Shown here: piece after piece, positions 24,928 to 43,962 of the stretch
How the letters are laid out: the number at the start of each line of letters is the position of its first letter
How positions within the stretch are numbered: the first letter of the stretch is position 1
Assembly: GCA_964445355.1 (NCBI GenBank)
Contig: CAYUKQ010000005.1
Coordinates: 1-45,557, forward strand
Length of the DNA: 45,557 nucleotides
Origin: an uncultured Gammaproteobacteria bacterium
Lineage (GTDB): Bacteria > Patescibacteriota > Microgenomatia > CAYQLK01
Direction: 5' to 3'
Notes under the pieces: generated by a model
Database searches by the model: none
Seen by the model: only the letters and a program-made list of their open reading frames with translations
Told to the model about the DNA's origin: nothing
Position numbers and translations under genes: made by a program

Positions 24928-27900
24928 TTAGTCCAAGACGGAAACCTGATCAAAAGTTGCACTCGAGACCTGAGAACCGTTATGTGAGGTTACAAAAAGT
25001 CCTACAAAAATATTTTGACCAAAGTTAACAGTTTTAGTGCTGAAAACGGTCCAAGTTATACCATCAACGGAAGTATAACCCGCAATATTGTTACCTGACC
25101 GGACTAATTTGAGATAAATATTGGGGAATATATACGAAGAGCCATTAATATTGTGGTCAAAGTGGCTCTGAAAAGCTATGCCGTTTGCGGGAGTTACTGC
25201 CAGTAATGTGTAATCCGACCCACTCGTCAGTGAATCTTTGAACATGATTCCAGCTTTGGCCCAGTCATTAGTGTTGGTCTGCGAATTGACACGGGCAATT
25301 ATTTCGCCATCACCGTCAAGTGACTGGTAGACAAAATGGAACTGATCAGCGTCTCCCCAGATGTCGTTACCCGCCCCACTAATGGAAAAAATATTATCTG
25401 CGTAAGTTGCGTTTCCGCTAAGTGAAGGTGTACCTATATCACTACTCGACCAAGGCGCCGGCAATATAGGTAGGGCCGTGTTTGAAACACTTACATTATC
25501 AAAGGTCACGGTGCTGATTTTTGACCCGTCGTGCGAGGTTACAAACAAACCGATCTTTACGGATGAGGATAGCGAAATCGGTCTAGTGCCAATTAATGTC
25601 CAGTTACTGCCGTCAACAGAATAATGCGAAGAGATATTATTGCCCGTTCTGACCATTTTCAGCCAAACATTGGGGAAGTTATACGAAGCCGGTCCGGCGA
25701 TCTCGTTGTTGTAATTGTACTGCATAGTTATTCCGTTTGCGGGAGTTACTGCCAGTAAGGCATAGTTTGAAAGGCTGCTTAGTGAATCCTTAATTATCAC
25801 TCCGGCTTTGGCCCAGTCATTAGTGTTGGTCTGCGAATTGACACGGGCAATTATTTCGCCATCGCCATTAAGGTCCTGATGAACCAAATACATTTGATCA
25901 GTATTCCCCCAGACATCGTCACCAGCGGCTTTGACTGTAAAGACCTGATTCTCATAGCTGGCTGAACCGAGCATCTTAGGACTACCGATGTCAGTACCAG
26001 TAAACGATGACGGGAGTGCTCCCTGCTGACCAGAAGCAGTCAGGTTGACATTGTCAAAAGTCGCTGTCGAAATCACAGAGGAGTTGTGCGAAGTTACAAA
26101 AAGTCCGACGGTTATTGTTGATTGTGCAAAATTAAGCGTGGTTGAACCAGCCTCAGCCCAGTCGACCCCATTGGATGAGTAGAAGGAAGTGATAAGGTTG
26201 TTATTGCGAACAAGTTTTACCCATGCGTTAGGAAAATTGTAAGGACCCCACTCTGATCCGGTATTAAAATTAGTTTGAAAAGCGTAACCGTGTTGCGGAG
26301 TTACACCAAAAAGAACATATGGAGACTGAGGCGTCAGACTCTCTTTGAACATAATTCCCGCTTTGGCCCATCCGTCCGTATTAATAGTTTGTGAAGTGAT
26401 CCTGGCGGTAATTTCACCATTACCAGTCAGGCTTTGGTGTACATACTGAAATTGATCCGAATCGCCCCAGATATCACTCCCAGCACCGGAAATGGTAAAA
26501 GTATTATTGACGTATTGAGAACTTCCGGACAGATAAGGTGCGCCGATATCGGTATTTTGCCACAGACCTGTAAGTGATTTTTTGACAGAAACATTATCAA
26601 AAACTGAAGTATTTAGTTCGTTGTATTTGTGAGAAGTTACAAACATTCCGATCGTAACCTCCTCGCTCATAGCAATCTCGACTGTGTCTAACGTTTGCCA
26701 ATTAATTCCATCGATCGACTTATAAGCCGTAAATGTATTATTGAACCTGACTAGTTTCAACCAAGCGTTTGGAAGCGAATACGCAAAGCTTCCCAAGTCA
26801 GAATTAAAACTGTGCTGAAAAGCAATCCCATTATTTGGGGTAACGGCCAGTAATATGTAAGGAGACAAAGGACTTGTAGATTGCTTGATCATAATGCCGG
26901 ATTTTGCCCAGTCGTCGGTGTCTTCCTGTGCAGTTACTCTTGCAACAATCTCTCCATTACCCTGAAGAGTCTGGTAAACATACCTGAATTCGTCTTGTGT
27001 ACCCCAAATATCACCACCGGCGCCATTGATGGTGTAAACGCCGTTGAGGTAGGAGGCATCGCCGGCAAAAAGCGGAGAGCCTACATCTGCGCTGACCCAA
27101 GGGTTTGGGGGAATTTCGTACTGATCAAAATTAACCGAATAATTAGTGTCTGTGGCGGGAGTGGTAATAGTATGTGATTGTTCGAGTCCGTCTGACCAAC
27201 TGAGAAATTTATAATAGTAATTCTGAAAATACTGGGGGGTTGGTGCACTCAAAACCCTTTCAACACCAACGACCGCTGTTTCGGTATAGATGCTCGTATG
27301 AGGAATGCCATCAATTGCGTAGGCAGTGTTTGGCAAGTTACTCGAAAATGTCAGTTCTACCAGGTTGGGGTGGATCGCTCGGCTGGTTGAGCTGGTCAAA
27401 CCTTGTGAATCTGTCGTAATCAAAATTATTTCGTACCAGGTACTTGAAACATTGTCCGCAGTACGAGGAATATTTATTTGACCTGAGCGCTGGTTATTAA
27501 TTTGCTGACCAAAAGGGTGAATATGGTCGGCGTGATGAAAAACAAAACTCCAGCTAAATGCAGAGTCGGGTAGTTCCCCATCTTCGGGGTCGCTACCTGT
27601 AGCCGAAAAATTAATTGTATCGCCGGCGTTATATTTACTGTTAGCTAAGGGACTAACGATCATACCGTTGGGCAGATTATTCCCGACAGTGATAATTACG
27701 GTTTCCGTATCACTTTTTTCGCCGTCTGAAACCGTAAGTGTGGCGTTATATGTACCATTGACTGTGTAGATGTGTGTTGGCGACATCTGCGCGGAGGTAT
27801 TACCATCGCCGAAATCCCAAAAATAGCTGAGTGACGTACCGTCTGGATCAGATGAACTACTGGAGTCAAATGTTACCGATAACGGTGCAAGGCCGGCAAT

Positions 27901-29058
27901 TACTGATGGTGAAATTGCCGCAATTGGAGAACGATTACCGCCTGAAGGAGAAATTACCGACAATGTCCCTGGGTAAAAATCCAGTTTATAAATATTACCG
28001 TCGGGGCCCTGGCTTAATTGGACGACAGCGCCTGCGTTACTATCAAATGTGTTGTCAGAAACAACTGACTCAAAATTGGTGTCAAACTGGAGGTATTTGA
28101 TAAACCCAAGCGTATAATCAGCGTAGAAAAAACTATTTTGATATTCAGATGGGAAATTCGATCCGGTATAGAGTAGTGTCGAGGTGATCGAACCAGCCTT
28201 GGCCGGAGGATCAGTGTGGTGATAGGTAAAGACCGGATTAATATACGGACAATTACCACAGTTACCTTCTACGTTGGGCCAGCCGTAATTACCGCCTTTG
28301 TTGATAATATTAAGCTCTTCCCAGGCATCGCCCCCAACATCTCCAGCAATAGGACGACCGTCAGGCAGGAAAGTAAAACGGAATGGGTTCCGGAGGCCAT
28401 ATGCCCAAATTGATTTGGCCGCTCCTGGGGTTGAATAGAATGGATTATCTTGTGGAATTGTGCCGTCTTTATTAATGCGGTGGATCTTGCCGTGTAGATT
28501 GGTAAGATTTTGCGAATTTAGGTTATTAGTATTCATCCCCATCGCCCAGTAGAGCTTGCCATCCGGACCGAATCTTACTTCACCGCCGTGATGGAATACA
28601 TTACCCAACTGCTCGGATTCGAGCAGAATTAATTCTGACGCAGGATCAGCAGTACTACCTGTTACGGTAATTCTGGACAAACGATCGTGGTTTTGAGCTG
28701 TTGTGTATGCTACATACAAGTATCCATTACTGGCAAAATCAGGATCCGGCTCGATACCTAAAACTCCGCGTTCGTCAGCGAAGTCGGTCGGAAGAGTGAC
28801 TAACGTAATTATAGGTTCCGGCTGAATTTGCCCGTTGGCAAATACTTTAATCGCGCCAGATTTTTCGGAGATAAAAATCCGACCATCGGACATGAATCGA
28901 AACGCAGTCGGCTCGGTAAGATCAGAAACCAGCTCAGTAAGATCAAACTCGGCCGGTGGCGCTGCCAGAAGAGGTTGGTCGATTAGTCTTGGCCAGATAA
29001 TGACCCAGAGTAATGCAGCAAAAAATAATTTTAGACTAAATTTAATTAATTTTTCCAA
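24928..29058 (-). CDS. Secreted PQQ-dependent glucose/sorbosone dehydrogenase-family protein with PKD domain and four C-terminal beta-sandwich repeats
   Basis: Signal peptide; ERGVLG, HHGG..RFGPDGKLY, YGLRNPFRF; PKD WDFGDG; four ~180-aa repeats (D.G.P...G.A...G.G.DIWG..D.F..V.Q.L.G.GEI.ARV..Q...WAK.GIM.K). TTG start. Confidence 0.88.
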   Translation of the reverse strand: MEKLIKFSLKLFFAALLWVIIWPRLIDQPLLAAPPAEFDLTELVSDLTEPTAFRFMSDGRIFISEKSGAIKVFANGQIQPEPIITLVTLPTDFADERGVLGIEPDPDFASNGYLYVAYTTAQNHDRLSRITVTGSTADPASELILLESEQLGNVFHHGGEVRFGPDGKLYWAMGMNTNNLNSQNLTNLHGKIHRINKDGTIPQDNPFYSTPGAAKSIWAYGLRNPFRFTFLPDGRPIAGDVGGDAWEELNIINKGGNYGWPNVEGNCGNCPYINPVFTYHHTDPPAKAGSITSTLLYTGSNFPSEYQNSFFYADYTLGFIKYLQFDTNFESVVSDNTFDSNAGAVVQLSQGPDGNIYKLDFYPGTLSVISPSGGNRSPIAAISPSVIAGLAPLSVTFDSSSSSDPDGTSLSYFWDFGDGNTSAQMSPTHIYTVNGTYNATLTVSDGEKSDTETVIITVGNNLPNGMIVSPLANSKYNAGDTINFSATGSDPEDGELPDSAFSWSFVFHHADHIHPFGQQINNQRSGQINIPRTADNVSSTWYEIILITTDSQGLTSSTSRAIHPNLVELTFSSNLPNTAYAIDGIPHTSIYTETAVVGVERVLSAPTPQYFQNYYYKFLSWSDGLEQSHTITTPATDTNYSVNFDQYEIPPNPWVSADVGSPLFAGDASYLNGVYTINGAGGDIWGTQDEFRYVYQTLQGNGEIVARVTAQEDTDDWAKSGIMIKQSTSPLSPYILLAVTPNNGIAFQHSFNSDLGSFAYSLPNAWLKLVRFNNTFTAYKSIDGINWQTLDTVEIAMSEEVTIGMFVTSHKYNELNTSVFDNVSVKKSLTGLWQNTDIGAPYLSGSSQYVNNTFTISGAGSDIWGDSDQFQYVHQSLTGNGEITARITSQTINTDGWAKAGIMFKESLTPQSPYVLFGVTPQHGYAFQTNFNTGSEWGPYNFPNAWVKLVRNNNLITSFYSSNGVDWAEAGSTTLNFAQSTITVGLFVTSHNSSVISTATFDNVNLTASGQQGALPSSFTGTDIGSPKMLGSASYENQVFTVKAAGDDVWGNTDQMYLVHQDLNGDGEIIARVNSQTNTNDWAKAGVIIKDSLSSLSNYALLAVTPANGITMQYNYNNEIAGPASYNFPNVWLKMVRTGNNISSHYSVDGSNWTLIGTRPISLSSSVKIGLFVTSHDGSKISTVTFDNVSVSNTALPILPAPWSSSDIGTPSLSGNATYADNIFSISGAGNDIWGDADQFHFVYQSLDGDGEIIARVNSQTNTNDWAKAGIMFKDSLTSGSDYTLLAVTPANGIAFQSHFDHNINGSSYIFPNIYLKLVRSGNNIAGYTSVDGITWTVFSTKTVNFGQNIFVGLFVTSHNGSQVSSATFDQVSVLD
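24931..27110 (-). repeat. Four tandem intragenic domain repeats (~550 bp)
   Basis: Protein-level repeats; exact DNA tracts 25181-25206=25733-25758 and 25253-25311=25805-25863, both offset by 552 bp. Confidence 0.85.
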
Positions 29059-29231: not shown

Positions 29232-30434
29232 CTAAGGTCTTGGATCTGGCCGGATACACTGTGGAAGTGCGTTCTCGGCCGGTTTACCCAAAGGGTTGAA
29301 GCCAAGATCGGACTTGGCGGGATCAGGCAGGGTCAGGTCAACCTGCCACCAGTAGATACCGGCAATTAGCGGGGTGAAAACCTGACAAGTCGCCTGGTAG
29401 TACCGAGCTTGACCTTCGTAGTCGGCAGCGCTTTCCAGCAGGTAATTCCATGGACGCTGGTGAGCGCCTTGTCGCGGTAACACCCCAACTTCGGTAAAGA
29501 CAACCTTGGAAGGATCGTAGCCTTTTTGACTGAGATCGTCGACCCACGATTGCCAAGAAGTGGCGAGTGAGGCGACACTGGCTCCGATCGGCGCGTCCAA
29601 GGGGTAATAAGCGTCAACGGATGGGAAATCGAGCTCGGCAATAAATGCCGGAGCCAAAACGTCCCAGTTGGCTGAGTAGGTCACTTGACCTTGATAGATC
29701 ACCCTGACAGAAGCAATTAACGTCCGCCAGCGATCCGTCTGAGGCTCCAGTGACACGAACTCCGTGCCGATGTTAAGAATGGCGACTTTTTCCTCTTGCG
29801 CTAACTTGGCGTATCCAAGCATCAGACTGGAGTAGCTGTTGAACCAACTATCCAGATTGCTCGGATTTAATTGCCCCCGCCATTTACCGTCAGCAACGAG
29901 CGAAGCTTCGTCGAGGATAGGCCTAAGCATGACGGTGAAGCCTCGCTTGTGCGCCTCTCGTACAAAAATACGAATGTTCTGATCGCTTGGTGTTTTGGCA
30001 GGGTCTTGCAAGACTTCGCTAGCCCGCCAGTTGGACTGAAAGACGGGAAATACCAAACTTACGCTGTTGACGTTGAGTTCAGCAAGCCTGTCCAGCAGTT
30101 TTGGGCTTTTGTCACGAAAATCTCCCCCGTCACTGTAGACCAGAACAGACACTCCGGCTTGATAGCTGGTAGGGCCTGATCTGGGACTCGTAACTTTGGA
30201 GATCTTGGGGGTCGGAGTGGCTGTCGGATTGACAGTTGTCGTTTGCTTTGCAATTTCTGCTGTCGGTACGAACTGGGTTGGCTGAGCGGTGTTGTTAGAA
30301 ACAGGTGGCGCCGAAATTTCTTTGGCGCCACCGTCTTTGCCTCCAACAAACCAAATGGCGAAGCCGACTGCCAGACTAATTAGCAGTGCGGCTGACAGCT
30401 GAAGATCTCGCCGATTCCAGACCAAAAGGTTCAA
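29232..30434 (-). CDS. Membrane-anchored glycoside hydrolase, GH113-like (beta-mannanase family TIM barrel)
   Basis: N-terminal TM plus P/T linker; GFTVMLRPIL, LNIGTEF, TYSANWD, VDAYYPL, FTEVG motifs; AAGGAGG SD before TTG. Confidence 0.75.
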   Translation of the reverse strand: MNLLVWNRRDLQLSAALLISLAVGFAIWFVGGKDGGAKEISAPPVSNNTAQPTQFVPTAEIAKQTTTVNPTATPTPKISKVTSPRSGPTSYQAGVSVLVYSDGGDFRDKSPKLLDRLAELNVNSVSLVFPVFQSNWRASEVLQDPAKTPSDQNIRIFVREAHKRGFTVMLRPILDEASLVADGKWRGQLNPSNLDSWFNSYSSLMLGYAKLAQEEKVAILNIGTEFVSLEPQTDRWRTLIASVRVIYQGQVTYSANWDVLAPAFIAELDFPSVDAYYPLDAPIGASVASLATSWQSWVDDLSQKGYDPSKVVFTEVGVLPRQGAHQRPWNYLLESAADYEGQARYYQATCQVFTPLIAGIYWWQVDLTLPDPAKSDLGFNPLGKPAENALPQCIRPDPRP

Positions 30435-31857
30435 CCTCCTTCACCAGGCCATGTCTGGTCTTTTCCCAGAAGTGTGGTCGTGTGATGAGCTGCAATAGGG
30501 CTTTCCAAGTTGCAAAACTCAGAATTCCCCAATACAGTGGTGCCAACACCATCCACTTGATGTTTGGGTAGAGTCCTCTGATCTTGCACCCCATCATCAC
30601 GTACAGGACAAACAGAACGTTGCCGAGCGCGATTGACAGGACGCCAAGATAGAAGATCGGGAGCGGATAGAGCTGTTCGATGAACGTGGCGTTGGTGGCC
30701 TCGTAAGCGAGCGTCATGATCCAGAAGATCGGATTGACCAGCAACACCAAAGGTGTTACAGCCACGATCACTACGAAGCAGAGGAAATTGACAAACCCCA
30801 GATCACGGTACAGGTCGATCTGGTTCCTGGTGTGTACCAGAAATGTGACCATTCCCCCTTTCTTCCACCGCGAACGCTGGCGAATCAGGTTGCCTAGGTG
30901 GCTGTTAGCCTCTTCCCAGGTAACACTATCCATTAGCCTCACTTGAAGACGTCGACGGGCGATGCGGATCCCCATATCGATGTCTTCTGTCACATTGTAC
31001 GCATCCCAACCACCCAGCTTTACCACGGTATCGGTGCGGAAATGATTAGAAGTGCCACCCAGCGGGACTGGCATTCCCATTTTTCCTAACCCGGGCAGAA
31101 TGAGGTTGAAGTAGGTTGCGTACTCAGCACTGAAGAATTTGGTGATCCAGTTAGTGTACGGGTTATAGTACTCAAGCTTGGCCTGAATACAAACAACCCG
31201 CCGGCTGGACTTGCGGAAGCATGCGACCGCTTTTTTGAGCTGATCTGGTTCCGGGCGGTCTTCGGCGTCGTAAATGACGACAAACTCGCCGGTTGCCCTC
31301 TTCAATCCTTCATTGCAAGCGCGCGGCTTGGTCTTGAGAATTGAGTCAGGCATGATCAGGATCTCAAAGCACGAAGGAAGCTCACAGCTTTCAATCTCCC
31401 GGATGGTTCGACGGTCTTTCTCTTCCAAGAGCAGAATGATCTGCAATCGGTCGATCGGATAGTCGAGTTTGCCGAGATTGTCGATAAGTTTGGCTGCGAT
31501 GTTGTGCTCGTCGTAGAGTGGCACTAGAATGGTGTACCGAGGCAGAGTCGACCCTTGTATAAGGGATCGCAACTCAGCATCTGTGACCACCATCAAGGCG
31601 GACTCGAGCGATTTAGCTGTAAGCAGTCCCTTAAAAACGATGATGACGACGTAGATCAGAGTGATCGTGCCGGCCAACGTCAACAGAACTGGCATATAGC
31701 CGAACTTCAGGATAGCCGCTGCCATGATCCCAAGGATCAAGACAATGACTACGGTTTGTTTACCAGTCAGGATAACCTCTGCGGTTTCCTCTTTGGGGCG
31801 CGTCGCCAACTGGTGAAGTACACCGCGTCCATTGCGGACATCTTCAGGACTGATCAA
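30376..31857 (-). CDS. Processive GT2 glycosyltransferase (cellulose-synthase-like)
   Basis: VPLYDE, TKPRACN, YDAED, VTED, QRSRW (D,D,D,QxxRW set), flanking TM helices, C-terminal FWEKTRHGL. Confidence 0.9.
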   Translation of the reverse strand: MISPEDVRNGRGVLHQLATRPKEETAEVILTGKQTVVIVLILGIMAAAILKFGYMPVLLTLAGTITLIYVVIIVFKGLLTAKSLESALMVVTDAELRSLIQGSTLPRYTILVPLYDEHNIAAKLIDNLGKLDYPIDRLQIILLLEEKDRRTIREIESCELPSCFEILIMPDSILKTKPRACNEGLKRATGEFVVIYDAEDRPEPDQLKKAVACFRKSSRRVVCIQAKLEYYNPYTNWITKFFSAEYATYFNLILPGLGKMGMPVPLGGTSNHFRTDTVVKLGGWDAYNVTEDIDMGIRIARRRLQVRLMDSVTWEEANSHLGNLIRQRSRWKKGGMVTFLVHTRNQIDLYRDLGFVNFLCFVVIVAVTPLVLLVNPIFWIMTLAYEATNATFIEQLYPLPIFYLGVLSIALGNVLFVLYVMMGCKIRGLYPNIKWMVLAPLYWGILSFATWKALLQLITRPHFWEKTRHGLVKEVEPFGLESARSSAVSRTAN

Positions 31858-31922
31858 GACAAAGGTTCCTCCGTCCAGATTGGTTTTATGGCTGATGATC
31901 GATTGCTTTTGTCTTTTGGAGA

Positions 31923-33602
31923 CTACGGCAGTGCTGTGCGGCGGTAGATTTGGATCTGCTCGTTACTGAAAACCAGCAGAAAATGATCGTCGAGTGCAGG
32001 CGTACCATGCAGATGCTCGTATACCTTGTCGCGCTCGTTATCTGAACCCCGCATGACAATCCAATCGACAAAGTCGGCCGGATCAACAAGTGCGGGCTCC
32101 CACATTCGGTAACTACCTTCGTAAAGGATTTGACCGACGGGCAGCTTGGAAGCGACCTGAAGCTCTTCGTTGCCGTAACTTTCCATCAGAACCAGTCCGG
32201 TGTCATAGTTTCGGCTGAGCCAGTAAGCGGCATCTCTTTGCGTGACCGACAACGCCTTGTCCATATCGGCTTCCGGCTCATTAAGGGTAATGATATTACC
32301 CTGGCTGATCACCAGTGCCGAGAAGGCACAGACACCACCAACGATCACGGCACGACTAAGGACAAAGCCTTTGGTCAGATAGCCAGCGAAGATCGACAGT
32401 GGCAGAAGCATCGGCAGCGAAAACCGTACATTGTACAAGTCTCCGCTAATTTGTTCGACGTGCAAGGGGCGCTGACCAAAGTACAACGCGGCAACGAAGA
32501 ACGGGAACGGAAACAGCAAGGCGTACACCGGTGCTTTACGGATGTTGATACGGTCGCTGACAATGAAGTAAGCGAGACCAGCAATCCCGATTACCAGCGT
32601 GACGACGCCTGCCGTTTCGTAGGTCGCGATCGAGTAGGTCTTGAGCGCAATCCAGATGTTGCCTACGGACTTTTCCGCCTCACCCACCCAAAGGGAAGGT
32701 TTGGCATACTCGCCGTATTGGAAGTAGAAGGGATTATCAAAGATCTGGTAATTCCAGACCAGCCATCCGACAATGCCGAGGCTGGCTAGGAAAGTCAGAA
32801 AAAAGACTTCCCCTTCGATCCGTTCGCGAGACATGCGCTGGTTGATACAGACGACACCCCAGAGCGGAACGAAAAGAGCCAAAAGAATCCAGCCCTCGTA
32901 CCGTGTTAAGGTGGCGCAGATCAGCATTCCGGCAGTCATCAACCCGTTGACGATGTTGCCAACTGGCTGGTCGATCGCCAATGTCCACTTGATGAAGAAA
33001 TAGACACTGCCCGACAAAAACATGCACAGTGGCAGCTCTGTCATGGCAGTGGACTGAAGGTAGGTGACGTTGGGATTGCTGATGAACACCAAACTGGCCA
33101 CCACCCCTGCCCACCGTGATCCGGAAATGGTTTCGGTGATCTTGTACAGAAAGACCGAGGTCCCGACGAAAGAAAACATTGACGGAATGCTTCCCGCGAT
33201 GCCTGTTTCGTAGAGATAGTCGTTCCAGATCAGTGACTGCATCAGGAGATGCGGCAAAGGTGGCCAAACACCACCGAGTTGAGCCAATCCCGGTGTGGGA
33301 CTGTCAACAACTCGTTTGGCGATAAGAAGGTGTGATTGTGCGTCCTTGTAGACGAGGATCTGATCATTGCTGAAGTAGTAGGCAAAACTGCCTACTGACA
33401 CCAACACACTGATCAGTACGACGCCGAGCAGATAGTAGTCGTGCTGCTTGGTAACTTTGACTGACGCCAGAGCAGCTTTTGGTCGAACCGACCTTGGCGG
33501 GGTGGTTCGCACAGCGATTGCTCCAGCGTTGACTTCTGTGGTTACCAGTTTGTAGCTGGTTCGCACAAAAAATCTTGCCACTACAAGCATGGCGTGGATC
33601 AT
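31923..33602 (-). CDS. GT-C fold (ArnT/PMT-like) polyprenyl-phosphate-sugar-dependent glycosyltransferase
   Basis: Multi-TM; DAQSHL..AKRV, WPPLPH, TRYEGW motifs; C-terminal soluble domain. Confidence 0.75.
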   Translation of the reverse strand: MIHAMLVVARFFVRTSYKLVTTEVNAGAIAVRTTPPRSVRPKAALASVKVTKQHDYYLLGVVLISVLVSVGSFAYYFSNDQILVYKDAQSHLLIAKRVVDSPTPGLAQLGGVWPPLPHLLMQSLIWNDYLYETGIAGSIPSMFSFVGTSVFLYKITETISGSRWAGVVASLVFISNPNVTYLQSTAMTELPLCMFLSGSVYFFIKWTLAIDQPVGNIVNGLMTAGMLICATLTRYEGWILLALFVPLWGVVCINQRMSRERIEGEVFFLTFLASLGIVGWLVWNYQIFDNPFYFQYGEYAKPSLWVGEAEKSVGNIWIALKTYSIATYETAGVVTLVIGIAGLAYFIVSDRINIRKAPVYALLFPFPFFVAALYFGQRPLHVEQISGDLYNVRFSLPMLLPLSIFAGYLTKGFVLSRAVIVGGVCAFSALVISQGNIITLNEPEADMDKALSVTQRDAAYWLSRNYDTGLVLMESYGNEELQVASKLPVGQILYEGSYRMWEPALVDPADFVDWIVMRGSDNERDKVYEHLHGTPALDDHFLLVFSNEQIQIYRRTALP

Positions 33603-33607
33603 GATTT

Positions 33608-34090
33608 CTATGTTCCTCCAACGGTTATGGTGCGCGGCCGTCTGTGTTTGAACACAAACTTGTGACTGGCAGCAAAAGTAAGCAGCAGTCCCGCGGCAGT
33701 GCCTGAGATCAACGCTAGCGGATGATTGGCAACCAGAATGATAAGTCCGAACACGATTGTGTTGGCACCCAAACTGGTAAGAGCCATCAGGTTAAACCTG
33801 AGGAGTGAGGAAACCTCGTAAGGACTCCAACTACCCGCGCTTTTCCGGTCATGCCAGGTGATATGGTAACTTAGCAGGTAGTTAACCTGCGTCGAAACCA
33901 CAAAAGCGGTTGCGTTAACGACTGTTGCCTGCCACCACTGATCCAGACTAAAGGCCTGAATGATGGTGAAAAAGACGAGGTACTGCAGTACGGTACAGAA
34001 TGCACCGACACAGAGGAATTTGGTGATGCGCAGGTAGTTAACCTGTGCACCAGATCCACTGAGGAACGGTCTGGTTATCTCGAAAGACAC
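33608..34090 (-). CDS. GtrA-family flippase-like membrane protein
   Basis: KFLCVGAFCT, NYLLSYHITW, FAASHKFVF; four TMs; AGGAG SD before GTG. Confidence 0.85.
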   Translation of the reverse strand: MSFEITRPFLSGSGAQVNYLRITKFLCVGAFCTVLQYLVFFTIIQAFSLDQWWQATVVNATAFVVSTQVNYLLSYHITWHDRKSAGSWSPYEVSSLLRFNLMALTSLGANTIVFGLIILVANHPLALISGTAAGLLLTFAASHKFVFKHRRPRTITVGGT

Positions 34091-36128: not shown

Positions 36129-36365
36129 TTACCCCTGCGGGGTAAGCTGCGGCGGAGCGAGCAGGTAGCTCGGCACTTTGAGAGTGAAAGTTCTCGATTG
36201 CCATACGCACTTGTCGCCGTCGTGACCTAGAGAAAATGCGCTGCCGGCGATCTGAACCCGTTCTTCGGCAATCACTCGACGATGAGTATTGCCATTGGGT
36301 ACCGGTCCTGCGATCAGGTCGACCTCACCGCAGGTACAGGAGAAAGAGGTGAATTCAATCTCCAC
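36129..36365 (-). CDS. Small hypothetical protein with CxC...H...C (possible metal binding)
   Basis: GTG 36365 overlaps the end of the upstream gene; start uncertain (the ORF extends to 36461). Confidence 0.45.
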   Translation of the reverse strand: MEIEFTSFSCTCGEVDLIAGPVPNGNTHRRVIAEERVQIAGSAFSLGHDGDKCVWQSRTFTLKVPSYLLAPPQLTPQG

Positions 36366-36567
36366 TTCTGATCCTACCTTCTTTGTCCAGCCGATCGTAG
36401 GCCTTAGCGACCATTTCACGGGTGATGTGAGGATTCTCGATGTGCGTATTGCCGTAGACAAAACTGATCGCTTGTGCCCGGCGCTCTTGAGGTGTCATGA
36501 CAATACCACGTGCAAGCACGATAAGTTTGTCGAGTGCGGGTGAGGACGCGTGATGTGTCAAACACAT
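36355..36567 (-). CDS. Small protein with ERRAQ.ISF.YGNTHIEN motif
   Basis: 70 aa, ATG, second gene of an SD-led operon; the motif is one I recall from a conserved small-protein family. Confidence 0.7.
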   Translation of the reverse strand: MCLTHHASSPALDKLIVLARGIVMTPQERRAQAISFVYGNTHIENPHITREMVAKAYDRLDKEGRIRSGD

Positions 36568-36584
36568 AAGTTCGGTTCAGCGTC

Positions 36585-36911
36585 CTATTCTCCGCCGACG
36601 AGGTGGCGGTTTTGGTCCGGCAAAGCACTGGCAAGCTCACTCCAGCTGGAAGGCCGAAGAGCTTCGACAGATCGGCGTTCGGCAACTTCAAGGAAAAACT
36701 CCAAGAAGTGTGCGATCTCGTCGCGGGCTGCACCATTGAAGAGATGCTTGACAAGCAGTCCGGCAACTTCGCGCCTGCCCTCCACGGCTTCAGCCTGATT
36801 TGGGGCGTGAATGTAGATTGCGGCGATGCGTGCTGCGTCCGGTGGGTACTTTCTGGCGAACTCCTGCATGGTCGCCAGAGCAGGGGGTGTTAGACCACCA
36901 TCACTGCTCAT
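36585..36911 (-). CDS. Hypothetical protein (108 aa)
   Basis: AGGAGG 8 nt before ATG; upstream TTGCAA-N16-TAAACT. Confidence 0.7.
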   Translation of the reverse strand: MSSDGGLTPPALATMQEFARKYPPDAARIAAIYIHAPNQAEAVEGRREVAGLLVKHLFNGAARDEIAHFLEFFLEVAERRSVEALRPSSWSELASALPDQNRHLVGGE

Positions 36912-36950
36912 TATCTTTTCCTCCTGTTTTTGGTTAAAGAACTATCAAAT

Positions 36951-36978
36951 AGTTTACTCCAATAGGTTTTTTTTGCAA
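36951..36978 (-). promoter_or_regulatory. Candidate promoter TTGCAA-N16-TAAACT
   Basis: Read on the minus strand upstream of the 108-aa gene. Confidence 0.45.
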
Positions 36979-36988
36979 ATTAAGGCAT

Positions 36989-37018
36989 AAAAAAGCGGCC
37001 ATATGGTTAATGACCGCT
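36989..37018 (-). terminator. Intrinsic terminator
   Basis: AGCGGTCAT-taaccat-ATGGCCGCT then T-run on the minus strand. Confidence 0.75.
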
Positions 37019-37030
37019 GAAAGTAGGTTT

Positions 37031-37471
37031 TTAGATGGCGATTTTTGGCTTGCGGACGCGGGCCTCCTCGCGGAAGCTGGAAACTTGCCCGTTGACCTTG
37101 AGCGCCACGTCGAACCCGTCGACATAGTTTTGGCAGCGAGTGAACAGCCAGGCGTTACGGATCAGTTCGCGGATAACCTGCTCGTACCCGTCGGCACTTT
37201 CGCTAGTCAGGATCGTCTGAAGATCAGCGACGATCATTTGACGAACGATGCTTCGTCCGAGTTCAAGTCGCACCGCATCATCGCGGCAGAGTACCAGTCG
37301 CAGCTGATGACCATCCGGCAGGATTTGGATGATCTCCAGCTTGCCTTGCGCCCGATCGGCAATGTGCGCCAACCGGCGGGCAAAGAACCAGAGCGCGTGT
37401 TCGTCGTTTTTGGGGATCCGGTTGATCTCCACCAAGAGTCGGCGAACGCTACGTGGTCTCCTGACTGTCAT
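37031..37471 (-). CDS. Hypothetical protein (146 aa)
   Basis: GGAGAGG SD, own promoter and terminator on the same strand; preferred over the overlapping + strand ORF. Confidence 0.7.
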   Translation of the reverse strand: MTVRRPRSVRRLLVEINRIPKNDEHALWFFARRLAHIADRAQGKLEIIQILPDGHQLRLVLCRDDAVRLELGRSIVRQMIVADLQTILTSESADGYEQVIRELIRNAWLFTRCQNYVDGFDVALKVNGQVSSFREEARVRKPKIAI

Positions 37472-37541
37472 GACCTCTCCAAAAAGTTAAAGTTTTGCGA
37501 TCTTATTAACCTTTTTAGGGGTTAAAAACCACAAGGCAGGT

Positions 37542-37570
37542 ATTTTAATTCAAGTCTGGGATTTTGACAA
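37542..37570 (-). promoter_or_regulatory. Promoter TTGTCA-N17-TAAAAT
   Basis: Read directly on the minus strand. Confidence 0.7.
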
Positions 37571-37621
37571 GATTTATTTTACTGAAATTAATAACCTGTA
37601 ATATGGGAGTTAAAAAAACAT

Positions 37622-37653
37622 AAAAAAAGGGAAGAGATTGTTGTCTCTTCCCT
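37622..37653 (-). terminator. Intrinsic terminator
   Basis: AGGGAAGAGA-caacaa-TCTCTTCCCT then T6; perfect 10-bp stem. Confidence 0.9.
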
Positions 37654-37795
37654 GCTCGTTGACCCTTGTTCAGGATCTAGAGTGACTCAGGAGGCCCGCA
37701 ATTGGGATCCTTCGCCGGCGCCTGGTGACCGTTATTCAAACGAAACAATCTTGTTCTGCAAACAGACCCCCTAGACGTTTTTTTGGTTTTTAACC
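37622..37795 (-). ncRNA. Candidate ~174-nt stand-alone non-coding RNA (or attenuator)
   Basis: Consensus promoter upstream, perfect terminator downstream, GC-rich structured body, no convincing ORF. Confidence 0.55.
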
Positions 37796-37801
37796 GTAGT
37801 C

Positions 37802-37830
37802 ATTGTATTATATCTTATAGTATTTGTCAA
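37802..37830 (-). promoter_or_regulatory. Strong promoter TTGACA-N17-TACAAT
   Basis: Read directly on the minus strand. Confidence 0.8.
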
Positions 37831-37869
37831 GGACAACTCTGGTTATAATAATATTTATAAAAGTAAAAA

Positions 37870-39959: not shown

Positions 39960-40583
39960 TTAGACGCGGGCGGCAGCGAGTGATGCTTCGACCAGTTTAG
40001 TGAAGTCGTCAGCCATGGTGGCACGGTTGTGCCAGCCGACACTGAACATTGCAACTTCGTCCCGATCGGACAGGTCACGGCCGGCGTTCATGATCATGTT
40101 GGCCATGTCGAGCCGCTTGGCGAGCTCATCGGCAGGCATATCCTGCCTGGAGGTCATGTTGGCGGTCAGATACTCGGGGTCGCCCTCGAGTATAAACCAG
40201 CGCACGATACGGACATCTCCAGCCTCAGGACGCTCGATCAGCTCCTGCGGGACAGCTGACTGATAAACCGGATTGAGTTCGATCACAGCACCAGAGGCAC
40301 CGTTCTCGATCAATGACTGGATGTCGCTGACGCGGTAAGCGTAGTGGAAACCCTTGTTCTCGTGGTGACCCACAAGTTCTCCGGCTTCAAGGTGGCGATT
40401 GTAAACGCCTTCATCGATGCAGATCTTGGTTTCAACACCTTCCCCACGTGAGGGTCGGGTCGTTACCATTTGTGGATTGGCCACACCGAGCCGCTCAATG
40501 ACGGTTTGGGTGAGGTAATCCTTGCCAGCTCCGGAAGGACCGGAGATACCGATGACCGGGATTATTTTTCGCTTTTTATCCAT
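39960..40583 (-). CDS. Divergent guanylate-kinase-like P-loop kinase
   Basis: ISGPSGAGKD P-loop, TTRPSR, GFHYA; GC-rich. Confidence 0.75.
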   Translation of the reverse strand: MDKKRKIIPVIGISGPSGAGKDYLTQTVIERLGVANPQMVTTRPSRGEGVETKICIDEGVYNRHLEAGELVGHHENKGFHYAYRVSDIQSLIENGASGAVIELNPVYQSAVPQELIERPEAGDVRIVRWFILEGDPEYLTANMTSRQDMPADELAKRLDMANMIMNAGRDLSDRDEVAMFSVGWHNRATMADDFTKLVEASLAAARV

Positions 40584-42682: not shown

Positions 42683-43771
42683 TTATTTAAGCGATAAGAG
42701 TGATTTGACCTTATCAACTGCTCTAGTCAGATCGTCATTGACTACGTAGACAATACCGAGATCAGGATTGTCGGCAAAAAGCGTTGTTTCAGCGACTTCC
42801 GTGATCTGTCCGGGTCCCATGGTGGATTCGAGATAAGAGTCTTTGACACTATAGCGACCGGATACTTCCGGATCCTGATGAGTGGGATCACCGTAGGTAC
42901 GGACAATGACTCTGGTTGCCAGCTCTAATATTCCCCCACCGGGTGGCAAGATACAGATCGGTTGGAGTACCAGTTCTGGGAGTAATGCGGGGGCGTTTTT
43001 GCTAATATTTACTACTTCGCCAGGGCTCTGTTCAATAAAAGCCACATCGGAGGATTCAAAAGCCTCTTTGGTAGCCGCAACGGTCGTACCGTATCTGCCT
43101 CGACCTTCGCGGATCAAATCAGCCAGGAATGGTCCTTGTTCCAGGTAGCGGTTATTTCCGCTTTGGTCCTTGCCTTCGACGTCAACATCAGGGATATAGT
43201 GATAGTCGACACCTTCAACTTCTCCGGGGCGTCTGGAGCGTGTAGTCGTATTGACGACTCTTGGACCAGAGAGCTTAATGATCGTTCCTTTACCTGTACC
43301 ACCTATACCCAGCATAGGTACACCGATCTTTTTGCCAGCCGTAAGTGCCGCCTCGACTTTGGTATGACCCCTATCAAAGGTGAAATCTTCGAGCGAAGAA
43401 GCAATCTTCTCGTCGGGGATATTGTCGGTTACTAGTCCGACCCCTTCAGCCAAACGATGCAGGACATTGTAATAATTGGTCTGATATTCAAATAACGTAT
43501 CAGCCTTGAGAGCCAGCAAATCAGCGATTATCGTCGGATTGCGTTTTAGTTCTGAGCGGAGGGCTTTGACGTCGTCACTAGCTTCCTCTGAAATTTCGAT
43601 CATTGATGGATTGGCAACATAGCGCATGACGATCTCTGTGACGACACCTGTTTGGGAGGCTAACCACTTGCCTGCTTCTGTTTGACTGTCAGCTGCAGAA
43701 AGCGCCTCTTTGACTTCAGTTTGTATTGCATTGTATTTGTCTTTTTCTGCCGGATTCATTTTGTTTTGCAT
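42683..43771 (-). CDS. Guanylate-kinase-like protein with an extra ~130-aa N-terminal domain
   Basis: GIGGTGKGT, TTTRSRRPGEVEGVDYHY, GRYGT, ILPP, VVNDDL..AV; start assigned at MQNKMN. Confidence 0.78.
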   Translation of the reverse strand: MQNKMNPAEKDKYNAIQTEVKEALSAADSQTEAGKWLASQTGVVTEIVMRYVANPSMIEISEEASDDVKALRSELKRNPTIIADLLALKADTLFEYQTNYYNVLHRLAEGVGLVTDNIPDEKIASSLEDFTFDRGHTKVEAALTAGKKIGVPMLGIGGTGKGTIIKLSGPRVVNTTTRSRRPGEVEGVDYHYIPDVDVEGKDQSGNNRYLEQGPFLADLIREGRGRYGTTVAATKEAFESSDVAFIEQSPGEVVNISKNAPALLPELVLQPICILPPGGGILELATRVIVRTYGDPTHQDPEVSGRYSVKDSYLESTMGPGQITEVAETTLFADNPDLGIVYVVNDDLTRAVDKVKSLLSLK

Positions 43772-43962
43772 TTTATTTATTACTTGTATTGTTCTGCAGC
43801 TGTTTAGAGAACAAGAAAACAGCGCGAGAGGTGATTCTAACATCAGGCTAAAAAATACTCAACGAGACAGTGTGAATGGTGAAATAAAATAATCAAGGAT
43901 TAAAAAATAATAAAAAGGGGTTAAAATAAAGAAAGTAATTATAAAAATAAAAAAACAAAAAT

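Follow-up and report, generated by a model that had tools for sequence, protein, structure and literature searches.

The window (the whole 45,557-nt stretch of DNA analyzed here) is ordinary chromosome, with genes for UvrA, UvrB, UvrC, enolase, phosphoglycerate mutase, PPDK, POR, a MurC-like ligase and a PgeF-like protein. On its minus strand, a segment of ~174 nt without an ORF (37795 to 37622) is bracketed by a promoter-like and a terminator-like sequence, which raises the question of whether this segment is the gene of a functional RNA and, if so, what kind of RNA it specifies. We find that it is very probably a real stand-alone gene for a structured non-coding RNA, and we propose, with less confidence, a role for this RNA in trans.

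A predicted transcription unit with a conserved promoter and terminator

The first-pass annotation of this DNA had claimed a promoter of the form TTGACA-N17-TACAAT, which is indeed present on the minus strand, agrees with the consensus at 11 of 12 positions and is conserved (Table 1). The promoter has all 12 consensus positions in five homologs, the 17-nt spacer is almost invariant across homologs, and L088, a member of subgroup B (see below), combines TTGACA-17-TATAAT (12/12) with a 12-bp terminator. The perfect 10-bp terminator that had also been claimed is there as well, followed by a T-run, and its stem carries compensated pairs in two homologs (G-C to C-G in L002; C-G to U-A in L086). A lone pair of promoter-like and terminator-like sequences is not beyond chance; we observed 5 promoter-like sites in 2 kb, compared to 2.0 ± 1.6 in shuffles. 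We judge this promoter and terminator to be real because the promoter, its spacer and the terminator are conserved in seven distinct homologs. The transcription start is placed at ~37795 because of the spacing to the -10 hexamer, and the promoter, to judge from its sequence, is probably very strong.

Table 1. Features of the RNA gene, in window positions, from the promoter to the 3' end of the RNA
Feature	Position	Strand	Basis and variation among homologs
-35 hexamer TTGACA	37825-37830	-	promoter match; invariant in 8/8 aligned copies (7 distinct RNAs)
-10 hexamer TACAAT	37802-37807	-	promoter match; TATAAT in most of subgroup B
Inferred transcription start (~37795) and 5'-terminal hairpin GGUU-AAA-AACC	37785-37795	-	distance to -10 hexamer; per-sequence folds
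A-rich single-stranded linker	37778-37784	-	AAAAAAA; AAAUACA in L086 and L087
Domain I, long irregular hairpin	37719-37777	-	closing CGUCU..GG / CC.AGGCG; per-sequence folds
CC linker	37717-37718	-	CCGCC in most of subgroup B
Domain II	37684-37716	-	GGC/GUC closing stem, invariant GAA internal loop, loop AAYYGC
Domain III	37654-37683	-	CUC/GAG outer stem, inner hairpin GAUCCU-GAACA-AGGGUC, loop NAACA
Intrinsic terminator, RNA 3' end	37622-37653	-	stem 37653-37628, 10 pairs, 6-nt loop, U-run

We found no ORF that is conserved across the homologs on either strand. The sense strand of the RNA region holds ORFs of 9 and 23 codons only, just as had been stated for its longest reading frames, and neither is conserved. 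Moreover, the homologs differ from each other by indels of 1, 2 and 4 nt, and their substitutions show no 3-nt periodicity (13/20/22). On the antisense strand, all five subgroup-B copies but L087 have a TTG-initiated ORF of 52-54 codons that spans the RNA (L088:4229-4404, plus strand); L087 has an ORF of 39 codons with an ATG start there. This antisense ORF is unlikely to be a gene, since it is shorter in L087 and fragmented in subgroup A. We also compared the two strands as the possible source of the RNA: with 37 G-U cells in the alignment, 97.1% of cells are paired on the sense strand, compared to 87.4% on the antisense strand. Because this G-U asymmetry fits the sense strand better than the antisense strand, we take the minus strand to be the RNA strand.

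The proposal that the RNA stands alone is borne out by its own promoter and terminator and by the arrangement of the subgroup-B loci. In L001, L088, L089, L091 and L092, a convergent GDPD gene comes right after the RNA terminator, and thus we conclude that the RNA is not a leader. In the subgroup formed by the window and L086, ~150 nt separate the terminator from the next same-strand gene. In the window this gene (37471-37031, 146 aa) has the promoter of its own that had been ascribed to it (a promoter-like site at 37570-37542, 10/12), as well as a ribosome-binding site (GGAGAGG) and its own terminator.

A fold of serial hairpins supported by compensatory changes

When each sequence was folded independently, a common layout emerged, comprising a 5' hairpin, an A-rich linker, domains I to III and the terminator (Table 1); the 5'-terminal hairpin is shifted in L091 and predicted in the six other sequences. 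Every helix except the short closing stem of domain II has at least one compensated pair. There is one such pair in helix 1 (the 5'-terminal hairpin), six in helices 2-4 of domain I, whose apical hairpin (37756-37738) covaries, three in helices 5-6 of domain II, and three in helix 7 of domain III. In the seven-sequence alignment, standard pairs fill 97.1% of cells (91.2% in shuffles; 38-49% in slid controls) and 16 of the 55 pairs have changed on both sides, compared to 4.7 ± 1.7 in shuffles (0 of 500) and 0-3 in slid controls; the alignment behind these counts was fitted to the structure, and its seven sequences fall into effectively two lineages, such that few independent events underlie the compensatory changes. 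The collected homologs thus point to a conserved secondary structure that is backed by compensatory changes. Invariant unpaired positions are found in the loops and internal loops, mostly A-rich (GAA, AAYYGC and NAACA).

In an alignment made with MAFFT and RNAalifold, a 3-nt indel threw the 3' strand of domain I out of register from one subgroup to the other, so that real helices appeared broken; therefore, we used a covariance-model alignment instead. Trained on subgroup-B sequences alone, a covariance model (R1) recovered the full length of both subgroup-A copies, that of the window (74.8 bits, E ~ 6e-20) and that of L086 (104.9 bits), and this recovery can be read as an out-of-sample test of the predicted structure. 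Against 606 kb of unrelated loci, R1 returned nothing credible. Compared to shuffled sequences, the folding of the window RNA is not unusual for the body without the terminator (z = -0.71); the value is -2.45 with the terminator, and -2.71 for the body of the subgroup-B RNA.

The conserved fold retains one of the four stems proposed in the first-pass annotation, GAUCCU/AGGGUC, which forms the inner hairpin of domain III, and not the other three. The segments GUCUAGGG and CUCUAGAU are complementary in all homologs, but the helix that they could form (-6.0 to -10.8 kcal/mol in the seven sequences) competes with a better local helix, the closing helix of domain I (-8.4 to -11.9 kcal/mol), as well as with domain III. 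When this pairing was forced, the penalty was 2.5 kcal/mol for the window RNA and 6-9 kcal/mol for six homologs, and by these predicted energies the long-range helix would be a minor alternative at best. The CAGG/CCUG stem occurs in subgroup A only and is not conserved, and the UCGUUUGA/UCAACGA stem has no conserved register. Likewise, the alternative fold in which AGAUUGUU pairs with the terminator did not hold up among the homologs (-9.0 in the window, compared to -2.0 to -3.4 in L086, L088 and L002).

We considered and rejected two structural resemblances. A K-turn in the GGC-GAA-G of domain II was set aside upon inspection, as G-G or C-C occupies the 2b-2n position; the window and L086 copies instead have a simple tandem G-A internal loop in domain II. 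A resemblance to SRP helix 8 (ACCAGG...GGCGAAGG) is not kept in subgroup B and has no match in Rfam.

Homologs in a narrow clade

The RNA family consists of seven distinct sequences in two subgroups, A (the window and L086) and B (the five others), with 67-77% identity between subgroups and ~90-96% within B. Full-length syntenic copies were found with blastn and nhmmer in L001 (CAYOLO010000001.1) and L002 (CAYQLK010000004.1), and further homologs came from contigs encoding relatives of the PgeF-like protein in a metagenome protein collection. Every such relative with at least 52% identity and sufficient flanking sequence has the RNA upstream of its PgeF-like gene (L086, L087, L088/L089, L091/L092), and in all seven distinct copies the RNA adjoins this divergent gene. 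The PgeF-like proteins beside the homologs are 52-71% identical to that of the window. Between subgroups, the RNA (67-77%) is better conserved than either the flanking PgeF-like protein (52-54%) or the MurC-like protein (56-58%).

In the fetched stretches around more distant PgeF-like relatives (44% identity; L093-L096), the RNA is missing and a NUDIX gene takes its place; it is also absent from one Amesbacteria locus and one Parcubacteria locus. In GTDB genomes, DNA-pattern scans with two patterns for the body and one for the promoter retrieved no copies beyond L001 and L002, the remaining matches being due to chance according to an nhmmer check. A scan of JGI metagenomes found only L097, which is identical to L002, and neither a pattern scan of viral contigs nor blastn against phages and plasmids gave a match to the RNA. 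A covariance model built from all seven sequences (R2) and run at full sensitivity had no genuine match in ~84 kb from more distant relatives; its best match there (L100, 15.9 bits) is a false positive that is driven by the terminator and lies inside an ORF.

The best named relatives of the window's UvrB belong to Candidatus Curtissbacteria, and the UvrB proteins form a tight clade (84-96% identity), with the next relatives at ~66-68%. Within the collections searched, the RNA appears confined to one tight clade of Candidatus Curtissbacteria, in the candidate phyla radiation (CPR). The records of L001 and L002, whose genes are the nearest to those of the window, bear the title 'uncultured Gammaproteobacteria'. 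On both contigs UvrB is 86% identical to that of the window, and on the L002 contig it is named Candidatus Curtissbacteria by NCBI; the title of these records is probably wrong.

Comparison with known RNA families

We scanned Rfam at the gathering score with the whole window, and at E ≤ 10 with the RNA region and the L086 and L087 copies. No credible family was found for the three copies scanned (window, L086 and L087). The remaining matches (U7, NPPA-AS1, an S15 leader, a CRISPR repeat and a group II fragment inside a gene) were rejected as junk. SRP RNA, RNase P RNA, tmRNA and tRNA likewise gave no Rfam or ARAGORN match for this RNA. We also note that the whole 45.5-kb window (1-45557) contains no tRNA, tmRNA or RNA recognized by Rfam. 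A full-text search of the literature found no non-coding RNA described for this Curtissbacteria lineage.

Two known systems are instructive in their likeness to the RNA. The raiA motif RNA (ModT) is an orphan structured stand-alone RNA that was found by comparative genomics (PMC11706538). Like the window RNA, it is an independently transcribed multi-helix RNA (~200 nt) with conserved nucleotides in loops and internal loops, and was recognized by covariation before its function. However, the window RNA has no match to the Rfam raiA model, and raiA occurs in thousands of species, whereas the family described here has seven sequences in one Curtissbacteria clade. The CsrB and RsmZ sponges are also composed of serial hairpins that end in an intrinsic terminator, and share the trans-acting, protein-binding mode that we propose below. 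Unlike these sponges, the window RNA lacks repeated GGA: its loops are AAA, a variable 5-mer, AAYYGC, NAACA and a terminator loop containing AAC, and thus do not show the multiple GGA motifs of that class. The conserved loops AAYYGC and NAACA differ from each other, and we saw no CsrA-like partner.

Surroundings of the RNA gene

The -35 hexamer of the RNA (minus-strand TTGACA) overlaps a plus-strand TTGTCA, the -35 of a promoter-like site (window 37824-37852, 10/12) for the divergent PgeF-like gene. The block around the -35 that is shared by the RNA and the PgeF-like gene is nearly invariant in the clade. The two promoters lie back to back and may compete for RNA polymerase.

Past the terminator, the minus strand of the window carries four small orphan genes (36129-37471; 110, 70, 108 and 146 aa). 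This cluster is conserved at 46-73% identity in the clade and has a GC content of 52-55%, compared to ~36-45% in its flanks; its proteins have no Pfam, NCBIfam or PADLOC match. A word-indexed homolog search with the 146-aa protein found only the protein itself, having also missed the ~50%-identical relatives from the clade, and a single-sequence AlphaFold model of this protein (pLDDT 50) is too poor for use. The corresponding cluster in subgroup B (L088:1656-4206, L089:80-2621, L091:222-2757) holds genes without a counterpart in window 36911-37622, namely the RNA-convergent GDPD-family gene and a gene of 287-343 aa, with zf_Tbcl matches in L089. Gene content directly beside the RNA is thus variable across the clade, and synteny within such a narrow clade carries no functional information.

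Farther away, a block of 50-53% GC (29500-34000), compared to 36-45% in most of the window, encodes GH113, a family-2 glycosyltransferase, a PMT-like mannosyltransferase and GtrA, and is an envelope-glycan cluster. Positions 24928-29058 encode a 1376-aa protein with glucose/sorbosone dehydrogenase, PKD and DUF1349 domains. A 207-aa ORF at a local GC peak of ~57% (39960-40583) has a weak guanylate-kinase-like match, and a second protein with a guanylate-kinase-like region is encoded at 42683-43843.

A proposed role in trans and its alternatives

We propose that transcription would begin at the near-perfect sigma-70-type promoter and be ended by the strong intrinsic terminator, and that the RNA would fold, from its 5' end, into a terminal hairpin followed by an A-rich linker, three hairpin domains that each fold independently, and the hairpin of the terminator. 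The first and last of these hairpins would shield the two ends and make the RNA stable, and the abundant RNA would act in trans by binding protein, either as a component of an RNP or as a sequestering RNA. That the RNA is expressed, abundant and trans-acting, with a protein partner, we infer from its predicted promoter and fold. Taken whole, the combination of a stand-alone ~174-nt non-coding RNA gene with a trans-acting, stable, abundant and protein-binding product has, in our estimation, an even chance of being correct; the protein-binding role specifically is more tentative. We lean toward protein binding over mRNA pairing because invariant unpaired residues lie in A-rich loops and an internal loop, and there is no long free seed. 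We found no clue to a protein partner among the neighboring genes.

The alternative that survives best, which we consider possible but not likely, is a trans-acting sRNA that pairs through its A-rich linker or a conserved loop with distant mRNAs and alters their translation or stability. The RNA indeed has the general attributes of trans-encoded base-pairing sRNAs, namely its own promoter, an intrinsic (Rho-independent) terminator, no conserved ORF, a length in the usual bacterial range (50-300 nt) and a lineage-restricted distribution, and its AAYYGC and NAACA loops are conserved. However, it has no obvious conserved single-stranded seed: the conserved sequence is mostly structural, the longest conserved stretches lie in helices or short internal loops rather than in a free seed of at least 7 nt, and the A-rich linker varies (AAAAAAA or AAAUACA). 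Moreover, a crude duplex scan against the 39 translation start regions of the 45-kb window, which is only ~45 kb of the genome, found complementarity no better than the shuffled background (mean of -23.8 compared to -24.1 kcal/mol).

The first-pass annotation had noted that the size fits 6S RNA. We think it very unlikely that this is the 6S RNA of the lineage (SsrS; RF00013 and related 6S families) or a functional analogue, which would be abundant and would bind RNA polymerase holoenzyme as a mimic of an open promoter. A length of ~174 nt (~170-190 nt for 6S RNAs), a stand-alone gene and a consensus, probably very strong promoter would fit such an abundant housekeeping RNA. 6S RNAs are poorly conserved in sequence, and thus a missing Rfam match does not by itself argue against this identity. 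Nevertheless, no 6S covariance model matched the window, L086 or L087 copies at E ≤ 10, and the fold supported by covariation consists of five serial hairpins, including the RNA's own terminator hairpin at its end, rather than a rod with a 5'/3' closing stem and a central bubble. The sole long-range helix costs 2.5-9 kcal/mol, and the pairing of the A-run with the U-tail is not kept in L086 and L087. Unlike 6S RNA, this RNA is limited to one small clade, and it is absent from the fetched PgeF-like surroundings in more distant relatives.

It is just as improbable that the RNA is a cis-acting leader, a riboswitch or attenuator in which the terminator would control read-through into the orphan cluster (37471-36129). 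The short distance to the next same-strand gene in the window and L086, and the existence of a conserved alternative pairing of the 5' strand, are consistent with such control. However, in subgroup B the convergent GDPD gene stands between the RNA and that gene, with the RNA still fully conserved, and the gene downstream has a promoter-like site and a Shine-Dalgarno sequence of its own. Inspection revealed no upstream segment that could compete with the terminator stem of 10-12 bp; the sole conserved alternative helix joins domains I and III, not the terminator, and is disfavored by the same 2.5-9 kcal/mol. Rfam gave no credible riboswitch or leader match for the three copies scanned.

The least probable of the readings considered, and one to which we give hardly any credence, is that the segment does not act as a functional RNA of this kind and is instead a DNA element of the PgeF-like gene (the promoter block with its spacer is the most conserved part and overlaps the PgeF-like promoter-like -35), a small protein gene (the 52-54-codon antisense ORF of subgroup B) or an RNA antitoxin to the 146-aa neighbor; the compensatory changes and the G-U asymmetry indicate selection on minus-strand RNA structure, and all ORFs are broken between subgroups. 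As to the antitoxin, type III toxin-antitoxin loci have the layout of RNA, terminator and gene, which the order here resembles, and their antitoxin RNAs have tandem or direct repeats; this RNA has no such repeats, and the 146-aa protein has no match in PADLOC, Pfam or NCBIfam, and its gene does not directly follow the RNA in subgroup B.

Implications

Where the first-pass annotation had raised the prospect of a new class of non-coding RNA, what we find is an undescribed, narrowly distributed sRNA family, and a new mechanism is not indicated. Bacteria commonly have lineage-specific sRNAs whose function is unknown, and the importance of this family is limited by its seven sequences and one narrow clade. 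CPR bacteria such as Curtissbacteria are uncultured and have genomes of ~1 Mb. The RNA likely does something that the cell needs, because it is structured and lies under a perfect consensus promoter in a reduced genome. A more far-reaching reading, which we regard as unlikely, is that the RNA might be highly expressed and part of a clade-specific RNP in these ultra-small bacteria, or might be a structurally unconventional analogue of a global regulator (6S-like); if true, such an RNA function would be new, and would come from a group whose repertoire of non-coding RNAs appears little explored. The RNA thus offers a concrete candidate for metatranscriptomics and for RNA-protein work in CPR bacteria.
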